38,837 bases of DNA from IMG/VR virus record IMGVR_UViG_3300035492_000219, positions 1 through 38,837 of that record; one strand, 5' to 3'. The first letter of the stretch is position 1. The number at the start of each line of letters is the position of its first letter. A program made the position numbers and the translations under genes. Below are positions 19,953 through 38,837 of the stretch, one piece after another. Under the pieces are notes generated by a model. It was given only the letters and a program-made list of their open reading frames with translations. It did not search any database and had not been told where the DNA came from. The DNA comes from a virus.

Positions 19953-19984
19953 TGCGTTATTGCGTTATTGCGTCATATGACGCA
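19953..19984. promoter_or_regulatory. Array of four contiguous 8-bp boxes (TGCGTTAT TGCGTTAT TGCGTCAT ATGACGCA) abutting the terS RBS
   Basis: Read directly. The last two boxes form a near-copy of the palindrome TTGCGTCATATGACGCAA. The array starts 13 bp upstream of the terS ATG. Confidence 0.7.
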
Positions 19985-29785: not shown

Positions 29786-30430
29786 ATGGCACAGACAATC
29801 GGAGTGGCCGCACAAAAGGGCGGCGTAGGCAAGAGCGGGGAATGCCGCGCCATTGCCACCACCTACGCCGCAGCAGGTTGGGCGGTCAGAATCTGCGATC
29901 TGGACATCGACCAGTCCACCTCACACAACTGGAACATCCGCCGCGAGCATTACGGCATCGAGCCACGCCTGCAGGTCGAGACGTTCGGCAGCTTTGCCCG
30001 CGCCTTCAAGAGCATCGGCGACGACGTAGACCTGGCGATCTTCGACGGCCAGCCGCGCGCCAATGCCGGCACCGTGGAAATGGGCATGGCGGTTGACCTG
30101 CTCATTCTGCCCACCGGCACCGGGCTCGATGATATGGAGCCGACCGTGTTGCTGGCCAACAGCCTGGTCGAACAGGGCGTGCCGGTTGAAAAGATCGCCA
30201 TTGCCCTCTGTCGCATCGGCGACAGCGGCAAGGAGCTGGTCGAGGCCCGCGCCTACCTGGGCGCCACCCCTTACCACCTGCTGGGCGGCGCCCTGTACGA
30301 AATGACCGCCTACCGCCGCGCCCATGATGCCGGCCTGTCGATGGTTGAAACCCCCTACCCCTCGCCCCGCGAGAAGGCCGCCGCCCATGTGCAGGCCATC
30401 GTCGACCGCCTGGCCTATCTGACCAAATAA
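29786..30430 (+). CDS. parA: Partition ATPase, small type Ib ParA (ParF/delta-like)
   Basis: Deviant Walker A AAQKGGVGKSG; 214 aa; ..LDIDQSTS.., ..AIFDGQP.. motifs. Confidence 0.88.
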   Translation: MAQTIGVAAQKGGVGKSGECRAIATTYAAAGWAVRICDLDIDQSTSHNWNIRREHYGIEPRLQVETFGSFARAFKSIGDDVDLAIFDGQPRANAGTVEMGMAVDLLILPTGTGLDDMEPTVLLANSLVEQGVPVEKIAIALCRIGDSGKELVEARAYLGATPYHLLGGALYEMTAYRRAHDAGLSMVETPYPSPREKAAAHVQAIVDRLAYLTK

Positions 30431-30466
30431 CGCTATAACGCTTGCGTGCTATAACGCATTAACGAA
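30427..30466. promoter_or_regulatory. Array of 8-bp boxes between parA and the RHH gene
   Basis: ATAACGCT ATAACGCT TGCGTGCT ATAACGCA TTAACGAA, contiguous and overlapping the parA stop codon. Confidence 0.7.
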
Positions 30467-30477
30467 AGGTATCACTC

Positions 30478-30744
30478 ATGACCACAATCAAAGTTCCCGC
30501 CCCCAAGCGCCCGGCCGGCAAAGGCACCCCGCCTACCACGGCGCGGGCCGTAGGCGTAGTCGGTAACAACATCGAGAAACCCGAAACCGGCGCCACCGTG
30601 CCGTTTAACAAGCGGCTGCCGGTCGAGCTGGTAAAAGAGGTTAAGCAGTTCTGCCTCGACCATCAGACCAACGCCACCAAAATGCTGATCGACGCGCTGC
30701 GCGAGTACATGGATAACCGCGGCGCCGGTAAGGCCCGCAAGTAA
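30478..30744 (+). CDS. Ribbon-helix-helix centromere-binding/regulatory protein (ParG/omega-like)
   Basis: 88 aa. Pro/Gly/Lys-rich flexible N-tail, then VPFNKRLPVELVKEVKQFCLDHQTNATKMLIDALREYM (beta-alpha-alpha). Confidence 0.75.
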   Translation: MTTIKVPAPKRPAGKGTPPTTARAVGVVGNNIEKPETGATVPFNKRLPVELVKEVKQFCLDHQTNATKMLIDALREYMDNRGAGKARK

Positions 30745-33466: not shown

Positions 33467-33498
33467 TGCGTCATTGCGTCATATGACGCAATGACTAT
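33467..33498. promoter_or_regulatory. 8-bp box array TGCGTCAT TGCGTCAT ATGACGCA ATGACTAT containing the perfect palindrome TTGCGTCATATGACGCAA
   Basis: Read directly. The 28-bp core TTGCGTCATTGCGTCATATGACGCAATG is identical to that at 33762-33789. Confidence 0.75.
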
Positions 33499-33508
33499 TT
33501 ACGGTGAA

Positions 33509-33727
33509 TCACAGCCGCCCGGCGTTGGCCTCTTTCGCGCAATGCTCGGCAGCAAGCTTGACCAGCTTGGTGACTTCACGCACCACGTTCGGCACTTCCT
33601 TGGTCAGGGCCGACAGCGCCAGTTCGTAGGTCTGGCCGTTGGTTTTCGCCAGCAGTTTCAGGGCGTCCTCAATGGCGATGGCCAGAAAGCCAGGGGAGGC
33701 AAGGAAGTTGTCGGCGGTCAGGGTCAT
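33509..33727 (-). CDS. Hypothetical 72-aa helical protein bracketed by identical box arrays
   Basis: MTLTADNFLASPGFLAIAIEDALKLLAKTNGQTYELALSALTKEV.. No motif recognised. Confidence 0.55.
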   Translation of the reverse strand: MTLTADNFLASPGFLAIAIEDALKLLAKTNGQTYELALSALTKEVPNVVREVTKLVKLAAEHCAKEANAGRL

Positions 33728-33762: not shown

Positions 33763-33794
33763 TGCGTCATTGCGTCATATGACGCAATGGGTAT
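33763..33794. promoter_or_regulatory. 8-bp box array TGCGTCAT TGCGTCAT ATGACGCA ATGGGTAT (second copy)
   Basis: Read directly, 36 bp upstream of the 33727 start. Confidence 0.75.
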
Positions 33795-34478
33795 TTGCAG
33801 GCCGCGAATGCCACGCCGCGGCGGGTCGAGGCGGCAGGAAACCACCGCCGGCGGCCAGCGCAGAGCCTCGCGCCCGCGGAGGTCACGCCAGCAGCCTGCA
33901 GGCGCTGCGCGCCGCTCGACCCTGTGCCACCGCATGCCCTTGCCTGCGAACGCTTCACCTGCGCGAGCGCTGCAAGCCCTGGGCGTGATTCGAAGGCAAG
34001 CCCACCCCTCGTATTGATCGCCCGGCGCGTAGCGCCGAAGCCGTAGGCAGGCGCGTGAAGGCGCGAAACGCCGTAGCAGGGCGCAGAGCCTGGCGCGTAG
34101 TGGCGACGGCGTGCAGCAACTGGAACGGGCCGGGTTCGGTCGAATGCGGTGATGCGGTGGCGACTGGGTGCCCTCACGCGCGGGAGCGCGTCGACAGGGT
34201 GCATAAATGACAGGGCGTCGCCGGGTGCCGTGGGTGATGGGTGCAGGGGGCTAAAGGCTCTGCTTTATCCCGAAGGGTGGTACCACTCGACATAAAATTT
34301 TGCAGTATTCCGGGGCGCGCCTTGGGGCGGGGCGCGCGCTGGCCTGTCGGCAGGTGCAAAACGGGTGGCGCGGTGCTGAAAGTAGGGCTGAAACAGTGGC
34401 CAGAACGGCCGGAAACGGCCCTGCGCGAGGCGCAGGCGTGCAGAGGCACCGCCGGTAGGCGGTGCGTTTGGCGGGGGC
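33795..34478. other. About 0.7-kb non-coding region downstream of the rep gene: candidate replication origin
   Basis: Only shadow-type ORFs. Imperfect GC-rich repeats: GGCGCGTAG at 34024 and 34092, GCCGTAG at 34040 and 34070, GCGCAGAGCCT at 33858 and 34081. A lone AT-rich island lies at 34291-34309, preceded by TTATCCCGA (7/9 to a DnaA box) at 34265. Confidence 0.35.
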
Positions 34479-35324
34479 TTAGCGGGGCGGGTGGAGCTTG
34501 TCGAGCAGGGCGACCACTTCGTCGCGGGTCTTGCCGGGGTGCTGCATGGCCAGCTCGACCAGGCGCGCGGCACGGTCGCGGGCGTCGTCAATGCGTGCGA
34601 CGTTGGCCTGTTCCTCGGCGCGGCGCTGGCGGGCGCCCTCGGCCTCGCGGTGGCTCTGCCGGCGCTGCTGCTTGGCGGCCAGCTCGTTGAGGGCAGCCTG
34701 CTGCTGCTCGGCGCCGATCTGGCGCAGGCGTTTGGCGCGTGCGTGCTTCTTGGCGGTGCGCGCCTGGGCCAGCATGTGGCCCAGGCCAAGGTCGATAAAG
34801 AACTGCGGGCGCAGGTGAATGGTCACGCGGGTGATCCAGGCACGGCCGTTGTAGTAGACACGGCGCACCTTGCGGCGCACGTAGCGCGCTGCCTCAAGGT
34901 CGGCCAGGGTGCGCGAGACGCGGCATTCAGTCAGGCCGCCGTCATAGGCGATACCGCGCTGGCGGTTCAGGCGGAAGCCGCCGCGGTTGTCGAGCCAGCC
35001 CAGGGCCATGGTGGCCAGGTCCAGCCGCGCCAGGATCGGCTCGGCCATGGCGGCAAGCGCTGTCCAGCGCTGTTGCTTGGTGCGGCAGCCGCTGCGGTGT
35101 ATGTCATCCAGGCGGCGCAGCCAGCGGCCTTCGCGGCTGGAGGCTTCCTCTATCACGCGCGCGGCGGCGGTGCCCAGGAAGGTGGCGCGCTGCTTGTCGG
35201 AAAGGCGTCGGGGGTGGCGGTCGGCGCCAGGGCCGGCCAGCGGCTTGCGCGGCGCGGGCTCTCGCAGAGCGGCGTAAACGCCGCTTTCAGGCGAGCCGGG
35301 CAGGTAGCTGCGCACGGCCTTCAT
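34479..35324 (-). CDS. repA: Plasmid replication initiator, IncFII RepA-like
   Basis: 281 aa from ATG 35324 (the track ORF starts at GTG 35333). ..GLTECRVSRTLADLEAARYV..ITRVTIHLRPQFFIDLGL.. and a long basic/Gln-rich C-terminus parallel the R1 RepA layout and size. Confidence 0.6.
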   Translation of the reverse strand: MKAVRSYLPGSPESGVYAALREPAPRKPLAGPGADRHPRRLSDKQRATFLGTAAARVIEEASSREGRWLRRLDDIHRSGCRTKQQRWTALAAMAEPILARLDLATMALGWLDNRGGFRLNRQRGIAYDGGLTECRVSRTLADLEAARYVRRKVRRVYYNGRAWITRVTIHLRPQFFIDLGLGHMLAQARTAKKHARAKRLRQIGAEQQQAALNELAAKQQRRQSHREAEGARQRRAEEQANVARIDDARDRAARLVELAMQHPGKTRDEVVALLDKLHPPR

Positions 35325-35404
35325 GCGCGCCACCGGGCGGCGGTTGCGCCTGTCAGAGCCTGCGAAAACGCAGGGCGCCCAATACGGGCGACCGATGAAA
35401 GCAT
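35321..35404 (-). CDS. 27-codon leader peptide translationally coupled to rep (tap-like)
   Basis: Own translation: MLSSVARIGRPAFSQALTGATAARWRA. SD AGGGGA lies 7 nt upstream. Its TGA overlaps the rep ATG (ATGA at 35321-35324). Confidence 0.5.
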   Translation of the reverse strand: MLSSVARIGRPAFSQALTGATAARWRA

Positions 35405-35439
35405 GCTGATCCCCTAGCAGCGGGCTTGCTTAGAAGAAG

Positions 35440-35535
35440 ATCGGCGCTTAAACTCTGACTTGTGCTGGTCGTGAGCCTTGTTGCTTGCTGATCTCCGAAA
35501 ACCCTGAGCTTGCCGGCTCGGGGTTTTCTTTTTTC
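35440..35535 (+). ncRNA. Candidate antisense (counter-transcript) RNA against the rep leader; 5' end not defined
   Basis: Canonical plus-strand intrinsic terminator at 35497-35535 (GAAAACCCTGAGC-ttgcc-GCTCGGGGTTTTC + TTTTTT), lying antisense within the rep 5' leader. A possible TTGCTT-N16-TTAAAC promoter near 35425 is weak. Confidence 0.4.
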
Positions 35536-35593
35536 TAGTGCCCTGTTTTTCCTGTTTCGTGTTCTTGTTCGGCCGTTCGCCGAGTGCCGGGAA

Positions 35594-35857
35594 CTATAGC
35601 ATGTGGTTTTGCCCATTCACTATGGGTGAACCGATTTTTTTTGCCAGGTGATCCAGGGCGCGCTGCGCCACCTGCAGGCCCAGTATCCGCCCGCGCGGCA
35701 CCTCGCTATCCAGGGCGCCCGCCCTCACCAGCTCGGCCAGGTAATCGCGCGTCGCCTCGATGGTATCGCGGTCATCCTCGAAGATCAGCGGGTTACCGCT
35801 CTCCATGGCCAGCGTGGCGGCCGGCGTTTCCGTACTCATTGGGTTTGGCTGCGACAA
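35594..35857 (-). CDS. 87-aa acidic protein upstream of the rep leader (CopB-position gene)
   Basis: TTG start at 35857 with a strong SD (AGGAGG, 8-nt spacing). No sequence resemblance to CopB is claimed; only position and size match. Confidence 0.5.
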   Translation of the reverse strand: MSQPNPMSTETPAATLAMESGNPLIFEDDRDTIEATRDYLAELVRAGALDSEVPRGRILGLQVAQRALDHLAKKIGSPIVNGQNHML

Positions 35858-35978
35858 AAGGACTCCCTCCTACTGCGTCGACGTGCCGGCGATTGTAGCC
35901 GGCGGAACTGGTTATGCTGTACATATTCCCAGTGTGGCACCTTGCCACCCGTCAAGAAATTAGACACATTGCAACTAT

Positions 35979-36008
35979 CCGCCGACCCCTTGTCTCACAG
36001 GTCGGCGG
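35979..36008 (-). terminator. Stem-loop ending the tail operon
   Basis: CCGCCGACC-12 nt-GGTCGGCGG, 78 bp after the 36086 stop. The U-tract is poor. Confidence 0.4.
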
Positions 36009-36085
36009 ACATGCAAGCCCCTTGGTTATAACGGCTGCAGCGCCGTTCTCCACCTTGTTACCACCGCCCTGCAGGAACCCAAGCC

Positions 36086-37102
36086 CTACGCAATGAACAG
36101 CCGCGCAAACACCGCCGGCACGTTGCCCTTGTTGGTGAACACCGTGCCGCCTGGGCCTTGCTGGTAAATCTCGGCGTAGTTCTGCGCGTAGTTCAGGCTG
36201 ATCGCCGTGGGCGAGGCGCTGGGCGAGGTGGCCGACAGTGCCGGCAAGGTAAACGGGTTGATCATCACGTACTCGTCTTCTGCCACGTCGTAGCTCGCGC
36301 GCCAGTAGTAGTTCCCCGCCAGCGTGCCGCCTACCGCGCCGACATAGGCCCAGCTCTGCACCACGTTGGTGACCACCGCAGGCGCCGCGCCCGAGTCGTA
36401 CACGCGCGCAGCTGCGCCGTCCCATATGCGCAGCCCGTAGGTAGCCGATGCGGTTGGCGCGAACGCCGCGGCAAACCACTTGCCGCTGGGCAAGTAGCCG
36501 ATGTTTCGGGTGCTGATGCGAAAGCCCGTCCAGTTCCCGGCGCTGCCGAGGATCGACATGGCGTAATACAGTTCCGTGCCGCTCGACGTTGACGGGCGAA
36601 TGAACACGCACGGCGGTTCCTGGGTGGTAATCGGCTGCGGAAAACTCACCGTCACCGTCATGGTGGTGCCCTGATAGGTGCCACTGCTCAGCACCGAAAG
36701 CCGGGGTTTCTCGGCGTCGATCTGCACATAGCCATCATCATTGACCGCCAGGAAGCCATAGGAGCCCGAAGGCCCTGCAGCGCCGGCGGCTGGGCGGAAC
36801 TTCATCACCAGAATGCGCACCGTATTGCGCGTGTCGTTCGCGCTCGGTGCCGCCGGGTGGTAGCGCGTCACCTGCACGTTGTTGGTCTGCACCACGATAT
36901 GCGGCATAAAGCTGTTATCGACCGTGCCGGTCAACGCGAGCGCAACCGCGCAATGGTTGCTCGCGTTGCCGGTAATCGGGATGTTCAGTACCGACGTGCT
37001 GGCGAAGTTCACCAGCACATTCGCCACGATCTGGTAAGTGAACGTCGACGTGTCCAGCGTCAGGCGCCCTTGCTCGTCCCAGGTTCTAAGCCCTCCGATC
37101 AT
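36086..37102 (-). CDS. Hypothetical tail protein encoded after J (338 aa)
   Basis: Start overlaps the J stop (ATGA at 37099-37102). Beta-rich, Ser/Thr/Gly/Ala composition. Function unknown; possibly receptor-binding accessory. Confidence 0.6.
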   Translation of the reverse strand: MIGGLRTWDEQGRLTLDTSTFTYQIVANVLVNFASTSVLNIPITGNASNHCAVALALTGTVDNSFMPHIVVQTNNVQVTRYHPAAPSANDTRNTVRILVMKFRPAAGAAGPSGSYGFLAVNDDGYVQIDAEKPRLSVLSSGTYQGTTMTVTVSFPQPITTQEPPCVFIRPSTSSGTELYYAMSILGSAGNWTGFRISTRNIGYLPSGKWFAAAFAPTASATYGLRIWDGAAARVYDSGAAPAVVTNVVQSWAYVGAVGGTLAGNYYWRASYDVAEDEYVMINPFTLPALSATSPSASPTAISLNYAQNYAEIYQQGPGGTVFTNKGNVPAVFARLFIA

Positions 37103-38837
37103 GCTGTTAAATCCCCCGCCTGAATGCGCAGTACGTTGTTGCCGTCCCAGAACTTCAAGGCACGGTTCGTCAGCTGCATTCGCCCCTGCCCGGCTACGCT
37201 GCCGTTGATTTCAAAGGTGCCGCTCTTGTCCAAGCGCCACCCCTGCTGCCCGGCCACGTAGTCGGTCGATTGCAGCGCCGTGGCGATCTTCGCCATGTCG
37301 ATGGTGCCGTCACCGATCACCGCCGAGTTGATGAACACCTGCCCGCCCTGAATCACGAACGGCGTGGTGATCTGCCCGTTTGCCACGTTGATGACCGCGA
37401 ACCGATCCGCCTGGAACAGCACCTGGCTTTGCATCCCCTGCGGCGTGTTCTCGATGCCCAGCCCCATGCCGGCGGCGTAATACTGGCCGTTACTGGTAAC
37501 GCCCAATTTCACCGAGTACATGGCCTGCAGCTTGCCGTCCGTGGCGGCCTGCGCCTGGCTGACGGTCTGCACCGAGGCCGAGGCGCTGTCGGCCTTGGCC
37601 TGGGCGGTGTCGATGCGCGACGACAGCGCGCCGTCCGCATCGGCACGGGCCGTGGCCTCGCTCTGCAGGGCGGCGGCGATGTCGTTGTTCACCTTGGCGC
37701 TCAGCGTCTCGACCTGCGACGCCAGCGCGCTGTCGGCCGTCGCGCGGGCCGTCTGCTCGGCGCTGATCGCCGCGGCGTTCTGCCCGACCTGGGCCGTTAC
37801 CGTGTCGATGCGCTGCGCAAGGGCCATGTCCTCGGACGCGCGGGCGGATTGCTCCGACCACACGCCCGCCAGCACTGAAGTCGCGCCGGCATTCCAGCTC
37901 ATATCACCCGCCAGTGGCGGGTTGATCTGAGCGGAAATACCGTCGATGCGACTGGCCTGGCTGGACAGCTCGCCCTCGGTGCTGGTTACGCGGGTATCCA
38001 ACGAGCTGATGGCACCGGCCTGGGCCGTGTTCACGCTCTCGGCATCGCTAACACGGTTGGTCAGCGAGGTGATGGACTGACCTTGACTGGTCAGCGTATT
38101 GCCCTGCTGGGTCACCGTGTTGCTCAGGCTGTTCAGCGCCTCGGCAGTGGCTGCCGCGGGAATGCGGGGGTCTGTGGTGTCAACCCAGGCCGTTCCGCTC
38201 CACCGGCTTTGCTTGTTGTTCTGCCCGGCCGTGGTATTGATCCACAGGTCGCCCGCCACGAGGTTCGCCGTGGGCGCCGTGGCCTGCCGATAGGTGCGGT
38301 TCTTCGTGCCGACCGTGTTGGTCAGCGAGGTGATGGACTGGCCTTGGCTGGTTAGTGTGTTTTCGGTGCTGGTCACGCGCGTGTCGAGCGCCTGCAGCGC
38401 CGAGGCGTCCGCCTTGGTTGCCAGCCCCGACAGCGCATTGGCCGCAGCCGCGGCGGCATCCGTTGCCACCTTGTCCGTCACCGCCGTCCACGCCGAGCCG
38501 TTCCAGCGCTTGGGCGTGTTCGCGTTGTTGGTGGTGTCGATCCACAGGTTTTGTGCCAGCCGGTCAGCCGCTGCCGGCGCGGGCGACTGGACAATTACCT
38601 TGCCTTTGCTGCCCGCCAGGGTCGCCGCATCCTGCGCGGCCTGCTGCGCCGCCACCGCCTTGCCGTCCGCGGTGGAAACGCTATTGGTCAGCGAGGTGAT
38701 CGACTGGCCCTGGCTGGTTAGTGTGTTTTCGGTGCTGGTCACGCGCGTGTCGAGCGCCTGCAGCGCCGAGGCGTCCGCCTTGGTTGCCAGCCCCGACAGC
38801 GCATTGGCCGCAGCCGCGGCGGCATCCGTTGCCACCT
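37099..38837 (-). CDS. Tail tip / host-specificity protein J, C-terminal ~578 codons (5' part lies at 1..3373)
   Basis: Repeat units (TSQGQSITSLTN..), coiled Ala/Gln-rich region and the C-terminal ..YSVKLGVTSNGQYYAAGMGLGIE..LFQADRFAVIN..PFVIQGGQVFINSAVIGDGTIDMAKI.. tip-attachment pattern. The apparent M at 38835 is an internal GTG. Confidence 0.88.
   Translation of the reverse strand, partial: VATDAAAAAANALSGLATKADASALQALDTRVTSTENTLTSQGQSITSLTNSVSTADGKAVAAQQAAQDAATLAGSKGKVIVQSPAPAAADRLAQNLWIDTTNNANTPKRWNGSAWTAVTDKVATDAAAAAANALSGLATKADASALQALDTRVTSTENTLTSQGQSITSLTNTVGTKNRTYRQATAPTANLVAGDLWINTTAGQNNKQSRWSGTAWVDTTDPRIPAAATAEALNSLSNTVTQQGNTLTSQGQSITSLTNRVSDAESVNTAQAGAISSLDTRVTSTEGELSSQASRIDGISAQINPPLAGDMSWNAGATSVLAGVWSEQSARASEDMALAQRIDTVTAQVGQNAAAISAEQTARATADSALASQVETLSAKVNNDIAAALQSEATARADADGALSSRIDTAQAKADSASASVQTVSQAQAATDGKLQAMYSVKLGVTSNGQYYAAGMGLGIENTPQGMQSQVLFQADRFAVINVANGQITTPFVIQGGQVFINSAVIGDGTIDMAKIATALQSTDYVAGQQGWRLDKSGTFEINGSVAGQGRMQLTNRALKFWDGNNVLRIQAGDLTA
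38337..38837. repeat. Copies of the 366-bp J repeat at the right window end
   Basis: 38337-38591 = 112-366; 38592-38837 = 1-246. Near-identity with a few mismatches extends to about 38319. Confidence 0.9.

Follow-up and report, generated by a model that had tools for sequence, protein, structure and literature searches.

A probable RepJ-family replicon with a REx-C-type control region in a circular phage-plasmid genome

Introduction

Among the described systems, the closest to the one considered here is the second replicon of pPsv48C, a virulence plasmid of Pseudomonas savastanoi. Its initiator, RepJ, is essential for autonomous replication, which is abolished when the protein is truncated, and the stem-loop SaL4 downstream of repJ is essential as well (Bardaji et al. 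2017, PMC5304414). In front of repJ, which belongs to the replication module REx-R, lies a control module of the REx-C type; that study found REx-C in Pseudomonas only and with a conserved core of 175-194 nt; its antisense RNA is called 'putative' even for pPsv48C, a pseudoknot has been argued against, and the minimal RepJ replicon excludes the upstream open reading frames (ORFs) (PMC5304414). The related RepA-PFP replicons have a module of this type too; their incompatibility has been mapped to it and changes with a few bases in a hairpin loop (PMC5304414). Here we analyze the IMG/VR virus record IMGVR_UViG_3300035492_000219, a stretch of 38,837 nt that we call the window, and report that its part from 33.99 to 35.86 kb is probably the replication module of a circular phage-plasmid, in which a RepJ-family theta replicon is joined to a REx-C-type control region. 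The control logic and the Rep family are already known from Pseudomonas plasmids; what is new is that they occur in a phage, that the control module forms a subtype distinct in sequence, that a small ORF is linked to it, and that the hosts extend beyond Pseudomonas.

A comparable layout is familiar from the IncFII plasmids R1 and R100, in which a small upstream gene is followed by a two-stem-loop counter-transcript of about 80-90 nt, a leader ORF that opens the rep start, and a downstream origin; in R1, CopT abuts the ribosome-binding site of tap. In the IncI-alpha and IncB plasmids (repY-repZ of ColIb-P9, repB-repA of pMU720) Rep is likewise translationally coupled to a leader peptide, and there, as with RNAI of ColE2, the antisense RNA acts on translation at a distance. 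Control and rep modules have been exchanged between IncI-alpha and IncFII (PMC5304414).

Results

The initiator and the layout of the region

The protein encoded by rep is homologous to RepJ. In a tblastn search of plasmids it is 34.6% identical to RepJ of pPsv48C over amino acids (aa) 1-207 (E 2e-15; NC_019292.2, repJ locus), and a gene about 35% identical over these residues is carried by many plasmids of the P. syringae group, pPsv48C included; the hypothetical proteins of two circular P. aeruginosa plasmids are 67% identical by the same method. Rep has no match in Pfam, NCBIfam (E<=1) or PHROGs, which is the lack of a recognized domain also reported for RepJ, and none in a sequence search of the PDB. 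In the AlphaFold2 model (predicted local distance difference test score, pLDDT, 84.5) a disordered N-terminus is followed by a single winged helix and by a C-terminal helix of 80 residues. Foldseek returned weak winged-helix matches only (E > 0.03), to proteins of the MarR type and to 4pql, the N-terminal domain of a staphylococcal RepA, a distant relative that had been reported before (PMC5304414).

Read along the minus strand, the region consists of an 87-aa ORF, an A-rich stretch, a hairpin, a 27-codon ORF, rep and some 700 nt of non-coding DNA. Its elements are as follows.

35594-35857, minus strand: gene for a small acidic protein of 87 aa; TTG start 7 nt after GGAGGGAG; G+C content at third codon positions (GC3) 0.77
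35616-35630, no strand assigned: candidate operator, the inverted repeat TTCAC-N5-GTGAA, whose centre lies near position -37 of the predicted rep promoter
35593-35601, minus strand: predicted rep promoter with extended -10 element TGCTATAGT; TGnTAnnnT conserved across loci; mRNA start predicted near 35586
35569-35583, minus strand: 5'-proximal hairpin of the predicted rep mRNA, TCGGC-GAACG-GCCGA, in the minimum-free-energy fold
35497-35536, plus strand: intrinsic terminator of the counter-transcript, the equivalent of SaL1 of REx-C; 14-bp stem at 35497-35528 with a 4-nt loop, then the U-run TTTTCTTTTTTC ending at 35535
35460-35534, plus strand: predicted antisense RNA of about 75 nt, made up of a 5' hairpin (35467-35493) and the terminator; complementary to the rep mRNA leader
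35426-35454, plus strand: predicted counter-transcript promoter, TTGCTT (35426-35431), 17-nt spacer, TAAACT (35449-35454), about 70 nt upstream of the terminator
35321-35404, minus strand: leader ORF of 27 codons; Shine-Dalgarno (SD) sequence AGGGGA at 35415-35410; internal hairpin CCTGCG-TTTT-CGCAGG at 35359-35374
34479-35324, minus strand: rep, 281 aa from ATG, RepJ-family initiator; SD sequence GGTGG at 35334-35330, in a predicted stem
33989-34310, minus strand: candidate origin, conserved non-coding blocks including TGCAAAATTTTATGTCGAGTGGTACCAC and conserved GC-rich hairpins

This order matches that of pPsv48C, where an A-run, the terminator, a hairpin, the antisense promoter, the leader ORF, the ATGA overlap and rep follow one another. 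Common to the two replicons are a homologous Rep and a promoter followed by the A-run, SaL1 and a hairpin. The next stem-loop then contains the antisense promoter, the leader ORF overlaps the rep start through ATGA, and structured non-coding DNA follows rep. In both, moreover, the control module is also found in front of unrelated rep genes. They differ in that pPsv48C is a virulence plasmid, whereas the module considered here lies in a phage genome behind a conserved small acidic ORF, and in that the hosts of its relatives include Azotobacter and Delftia.

An earlier note on this DNA had drawn a parallel to copB-copA-tap-repA-oriR of R1/R100, and three of the four observations on which it relied hold: the 87-aa ORF with its SD sequence upstream of the rep leader, which has homologues in about 20 of 28 related loci (described below); the opposite-strand intrinsic terminator inside the rep leader, whose helix covaries; and the 27-codon ORF whose TGA overlaps the rep ATG. 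The functional side of that parallel is well supported by the comparisons below, which favor a theta-type replicon with a downstream origin, in which a short counter-transcript and a translationally coupled leader ORF would govern Rep synthesis. The family assignment has to be given up. The rep product does have the expected size and is followed by non-coding DNA, but it lacks the IncFII RepA motifs ascribed to it, and the profile check that the note had proposed gave no match; Rep falls with RepJ instead. Judged by its Rep and its layout, the home of this replicon is the RepJ/REx-C family of Pseudomonas plasmids and not IncFII.

Related loci and exchange of rep genes

For comparison we assembled 28 distinct control regions of the window type from Rep homologues, a genome scan, a viral pattern scan followed by an nhmmer filter, and a metagenome scan; the filter was needed because the loose viral pattern gave mostly chance matches. 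Ten of the 28 were found through Rep alone and are therefore independent of the DNA pattern.

Half of these control regions (14 of 28) precede a different Rep of 334-341 aa, which starts exactly at the AUG of the leader ORF. This second type of Rep has no Pfam match and is about 35% identical to an Aeromonas gene annotated 'plasmid replication protein repA'. It is carried by phage PARCL1pr (L157; MZ496292.1, 3189-4646), by the Delftia plasmid pHQS1 (L158), and by loci L059, L093, L108, L127, L035, L076 and L086. The virion module of the window is 75% identical to that of Pseudomonas phage PARCL1pr, in which the second type of Rep stands behind this control region and small ORF, and pHQS1 is arranged like PARCL1pr. 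What we see here is a natural swap of rep modules between sister phage-plasmids. In three RepJ-type loci (L099, 10444-10758; L143; L155) the DNA of a 45-codon leader ORF matches the 5' end of the second-type rep at 85 of 111 nt (77% identity), suggesting that in some relatives another rep was displaced and that RepJ-type genes were inserted behind what was left of it.

The relatives have been deposited both as complete circular plasmids (CP124676.1, pHQS1) and, in one case, as "phage" (PARCL1pr). The P. aeruginosa plasmid CP124676.1 (L001; 48.4 kb, from a clinical urine isolate) combines P2-like tail genes with a window-type RepJ replicon; it also has a mer operon, a PIN toxin-antitoxin pair and a Tn3-family transposase, and is a phage-plasmid with resistance cargo. 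In the searchable literature we found nothing on PARCL1pr, on RepJ or REx-C in phages, or on the phage-plasmid group of the window.

The predicted counter-transcript

The terminator helix shows compensatory changes in 6 of 10 consensus pairs (RNAalifold, 28 loci). Its wobble pairs favor the plus strand: 18 alignment cells are G.U on the plus strand, versus 3 A.C cells that would be G.U on the minus strand. The folding energies in the window lean the same way, at -9.5 versus -2.4 kcal/mol for the 5' hairpin and -23.1 versus -17.1 kcal/mol for the terminator (plus versus minus strand), and both hairpins are more stable on the plus strand in the locus set as a whole (p ~1e-5 by Wilcoxon test, not adjusted for relatedness). 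The number of terminator-like sites between 34000 and 36300, this terminator being one of them, is not above chance (2 found versus 2.6 expected).

Upstream of the terminator, the TTGC and TA.ACT hexamers of the predicted promoter and their 17-nt spacing are invariant among the ten loci found by Rep homology alone, and the spacer between them varies. A two-hairpin RNA is predicted in all 28 loci, measuring 76-84 nt in 27 of them and 123 nt in L008, where the excess is an artefact of end finding; the predicted RNA of the window folds with -32.8 kcal/mol (z = -5.8). A hand-curated covariance model was dropped, as its upper stem is offset from one sequence to the next.

No Rfam family matched anywhere in the window at the gathering score. 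Below threshold, RF01772, the Pseudomonas rnk leader (rnk_pseudo), matched over its full model length at 35416-35534 of the plus strand with 32 bits (gathering score 55). This match coincides with the span from the antisense promoter to the terminator; its first helix is unsupported, and the likeness consists mainly of GCGGGCUUG and the terminator.

The leader ORF and a model for the control of Rep

The TGA of the leader ORF (35323-35321) overlaps the ATG of rep (35324-35322) as ATGA, a shorter overlap than the 8 nt between tap and repA of R100. All 14 RepJ-type loci have an ORF of 26-45 codons behind an SD sequence at the same place, with a stop codon overlapping the rep start (ATGA in eight, TTGA in five, GTGA in one). 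That the overlap is constant while the length and sequence of the peptide diverge is a signature of translational coupling. The predicted accessibility of the two start sites fits this, the unpaired fraction in the window being 0.13 for the SD/AUG of rep versus 0.51 for the leader SD, and the former is less accessible than the latter in 12 of the 14 loci. With the ribosome-binding site of rep in a stem and the leader ORF ending on the rep start, most Rep would thus be synthesized by ribosomes arriving from the leader ORF. In sister elements this control region is followed by a different rep whose own start is the leader AUG, and the step that is regulated is therefore probably initiation at this conserved AUG.

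The following sequence of events can be proposed. Transcription of rep would start near 35586 and produce a leader of about 260 nt, whose 5'-terminal hairpin may serve as a stabilizing stem-loop; other loci have different self-complementary sequences at this place. The opposite strand would give rise to a constitutive antisense RNA of about 75 nt, initiated by the promoter at 35426-35454 and ended by the terminator at 35497-35536; this RNA would be present at a level that tracks copy number. By pairing with the leader it would reduce translation initiation at the AUG at 35404, and with it the supply of ribosomes that, having translated the leader ORF, make most of the Rep protein. The winged-helix Rep would finally act on the conserved non-coding region just downstream of its gene. 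In this scheme we infer both that the RNA is made and that it is inhibitory.

The antisense target ends 56 nt upstream of the leader AUG, unlike CopT of R1, and pairing there would have to reach the AUG at a distance, as it does in the IncI-alpha/IncB plasmids and ColE2. It differs from the former in that no complementarity between target loop and rep start, of the kind that forms a pseudoknot, was seen on reading the window-type sequences, and from ColE2 in that the ColE2-type Rep is a primase and the window Rep is not. A hand-drawn 'anti-sequestor' structure, seen in the window and in L006 only, was discarded as unsupported, since the predicted accessibility of the leader SD does not change when the antisense target is kept unpaired.

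The candidate origin

GC3 filtering leaves about 700 nt after rep without a credible gene, and gene callers leave 770-960 nt empty at this place in the relatives. Within this region, blocks are kept among diverged relatives, chromosomal ones included. Between about 33989 and 34150 there are GC-rich hairpins with compensatory changes, and at 34277-34286 a 10-bp palindrome, GTGGTACCAC, is preceded by the A+T-rich stretch TGCAAAATTTTATGTC. No DnaA box (TTATCCACA, at most one mismatch) was found between 33000 and 36000, and no iterons or direct repeats near rep, which distinguishes the locus from the iteron-bearing replicon of pRA2. We infer from this conserved DNA, and from the position of SaL4 in pPsv48C, that replication may start here.

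The small upstream protein

Homologues with the pattern 'GNPLI..D.DTI' occupy the position of the 87-aa ORF in the related loci that carry it. Tail modules of the siphovirus type or of the P2 type precede them, and Rep genes of either type follow, which suggests that the ORF travels with the control module. A small gene in the same place is also known from a functional replicon, that of pRA2 of Pseudomonas alcaligenes, where repB (240 nt) lies directly upstream of REx-C-like stem-loops. The window protein has an isoelectric point (pI) of 4.9 and the family one of 4.5-5.8. No Pfam, PHROG or PDB relative of the protein was found, and none of 17 family members examined has a Pfam match. AlphaFold2 predicts a two-helix hairpin at a mediocre pLDDT of 70, and all fold matches to this model, Rop included, have E > 1, so that they are not usable as evidence.

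The motif 'GNPL' (window 35779-35790) is common to this family and to CopB of R100 (L159:43254-43508), in both about 20 residues from the N-terminus. As the profiles of the two families match with a probability of 4% over 9 residues, it is probably a coincidence; nothing supports a CopB-like function, and the label 'copB-like' describes a position. The CAC-N5-GTG core of the inverted repeat is found at this position throughout the 28 loci, also where the small ORF is missing or the other Rep is present.

Discussion

Points against the proposed replicon and rival explanations

The anatomy of the module, its conservation and covariation, and the homology of Rep to RepJ are direct observations, and together they make the replicon proposed here the probable one. 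Several of our results nevertheless weigh against it. The antisense promoter has 7 of 12 consensus matches and falls below our 9/12 scan, which also missed the rep promoter, a weak match to the consensus. The 5' hairpin taken alone is no more stable than shuffled sequence (mean z -0.35). When the leader was folded with the antisense target kept in a duplex, the accessibility of its SD was unchanged (0.36 versus 0.38). An nhmmer profile of ten window-type leaders finds nothing significant in pPsv48C and, among REx-C regions, the terminator only, at three loci in P. luteola and P. asuensis (E 4e-4 to 3e-3). Finally, the genome encodes a tyrosine recombinase, and the element may therefore also integrate.

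How far these points favor a different explanation depends on what the alternatives can accommodate. A true IncFII replicon, with homologues of CopB, CopA, Tap, RepA and oriR, would account for the gene order, for the sizes (87 versus 84 aa for CopB, 27 versus 24 codons for Tap, 281 versus 285 aa for RepA) and for the shared 'GNPL', and yet, as far as sequence homology goes, membership is refuted, whether one looks at Rep, at the small protein or at the RNA. None of 30 Rep relatives matches IncFII_repA, their only matches being to generic winged helices of the MarR/Crp/IclR type; the window Rep compared with RepA of R100 by hhalign gives a probability of 0.3%; the small protein is not CopB/PF10723, as the family comparison given above indicates; and neither an Rfam match at the gathering score nor a DnaA box near the downstream region is present. 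We can hardly give this explanation any credence, and regard the coupling through a leader ORF as an architectural feature of several plasmid families; no component of the window replicon is homologous to one of IncFII. Those same winged-helix matches, the weak MarR-like Foldseek result and the label 'MarR family regulator' that some sources attach to relatives would equally suit a phage transcription factor, in which case the region would be a switch unrelated to replication. This is very unlikely given the homology to RepJ, whose truncation abolishes autonomous replication. Relatives of the protein, moreover, sit on complete circular plasmids with no other annotated initiator in the parts examined, structured non-coding DNA is conserved downstream, a gene related to the Aeromonas 'plasmid replication protein repA' fills the same slot in sister elements, and a staphylococcal RepA domain is among the fold matches.

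A more serious challenge concerns the antisense RNA itself. The hairpins might function on the sense strand alone or be plain terminators, SaL1 for example acting as an attenuator or as an insulator against read-through from the tail-fibre operon, with the leader ORF, autorepression at the inverted repeat, or the two together controlling Rep. Read on the minus strand the terminator hairpin is CCCCGAGC-CGGCAA-GCTCAGGG, and on this strand it is followed by TTTTCGG, which would allow weak bidirectional termination; no minus-strand terminator lies between the small ORF and the leader, the inverted repeat lies at -37 of the rep promoter, the 5' hairpin is unexceptional, and an antisense RNA is putative even in pPsv48C. 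Against this, the 18:3 wobble ratio and the folding energies favor the plus strand (the G.U pairs become C.A mismatches on the sense strand), a promoter whose hexamers are conserved at a 17-nt spacing reads into the terminator, there is no upstream plus-strand gene that would need one, and incompatibility maps to the REx-C region in the related RepA-PFP replicons. We thus consider control without an antisense RNA improbable. Somewhat less so, though still doubtful, is the idea that the small protein is an analogue of CopB that binds 35616-35630 and shuts the rep promoter, with read-through from its own promoter supplying a basal level of rep mRNA. Its position is that of copB and of repB of pRA2 before the stem-loops, it is conserved beside the control region behind two virion types and before two Rep families, and the inverted repeat overlaps the -35 region; however, the protein is acidic and predicted to be a two-helix hairpin with neither a helix-turn-helix nor a ribbon-helix-helix, it has no database relative, seven loci have kept the inverted repeat although the small ORF is missing from them, and the minimal RepJ replicon of pPsv48C does not include the upstream ORFs. 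A further possibility, which we hold to be a long shot, is that the acidic two-helix protein is a new accessory factor of antisense copy control, acting for instance like Rop on the RNA-RNA complex, and that late read-through couples lytic development to Rep synthesis. The scan from 34000 to 36300 found no minus-strand terminator ahead of the rep leader, where the module adjoins the end of the tail-fibre operon, and read-through from the late operon into rep is thus possible; if true, the small protein and the late-gene read-through would amount to a phage-specific rewiring of a plasmid replicon.

The phage-plasmid setting and its significance

A RepJ/REx-C-type replicon in a phage genome places the element in a group of phage-plasmids that has had no name so far. 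The window is a 38.8-kb Pseudomonas-type phage genome with genes for terminase, portal, capsid, tape-measure protein, lysozyme, HNH proteins and a siphovirus virion module, together with a CI-like S24 repressor, ParA and the recombinase already mentioned. Virion and lysis genes and plasmid replication and partition genes thus lie on one replicon. When the end of the window is joined to its start, a single unbroken frame of 1717 codons results, encoding a J-like tail tip and fibre (3415->1 / 38837->37102, minus strand), which indicates a complete circular or circularly permuted genome. Pfam and PHROG scans of the remaining ORFs recognized no other replication gene; this is consistent with the suggestion of the earlier note that the module is the only replicon of the phage, a point that such scans cannot prove.

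As in the P1, N15 and SSU5 groups, the genome of a temperate phage here encodes ParA and an initiator of plasmid type and would persist as a circle. In contrast to those groups, the replicon is predicted to be antisense-controlled and is of Pseudomonas plasmid origin, and the element is not among the groups described. Elements whose initiators lack a Pfam profile escape the phage-plasmid screen (Pfeifer et al. 2021, PMC7969092), and since no profile exists in Pfam, NCBIfam or PHROGs for the initiators of the present group, screens based on known replicases miss it. It appears to comprise circles of about 38-48 kb in Pseudomonas, Azotobacter and Delftia, with two virion types and two Rep families, whose members are filed as "phage" or as "plasmids", a clinical P. 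aeruginosa plasmid with a mercury-resistance transposon being one of them. The idea of REx as an exchangeable module is thereby extended from plasmids of plant pathogens to phages and beyond the genus Pseudomonas, the leader ORF of some relatives being a likely footprint of rep replacement. The module also predicts incompatibility and copy-number behavior of such prophages and offers a compact and testable Pseudomonas replicon.

Other features of the window

The parA gene (29786-30430, plus strand) is followed by an 88-aa ORF (30478-30744, plus strand) that has no family match and is possibly ParB; the pair lies 3-4 kb from rep on the opposite strand. A perfect 16-bp palindrome, TGCGTCATATGACGCA, occurs three times in the window, at 19969-19984, 33475-33490 and 33771-33786, with 0.11 occurrences expected by chance at <=3 mismatches. 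One copy immediately precedes the small-terminase gene; the two others, each part of a 35-nt repeat, lie on either side of a 72-aa ORF (33509-33727, minus strand) beside the origin region, and a copy with three mismatches (30443-30458) directly follows the parA stop codon. These palindromes are candidate operators or parS sites.

The fibre part of the 1717-codon frame contains an internal duplication of about 366 nt, with identical 28-aa ORFs at 38373-38459 and 38739-38825. In the 228-nt gap at 35858-36085, between a tail-fibre-associated gene and the small ORF, there is a GC-rich hairpin, GTCCGCCGACC...GGTCGGCGGAT, without a U-run.

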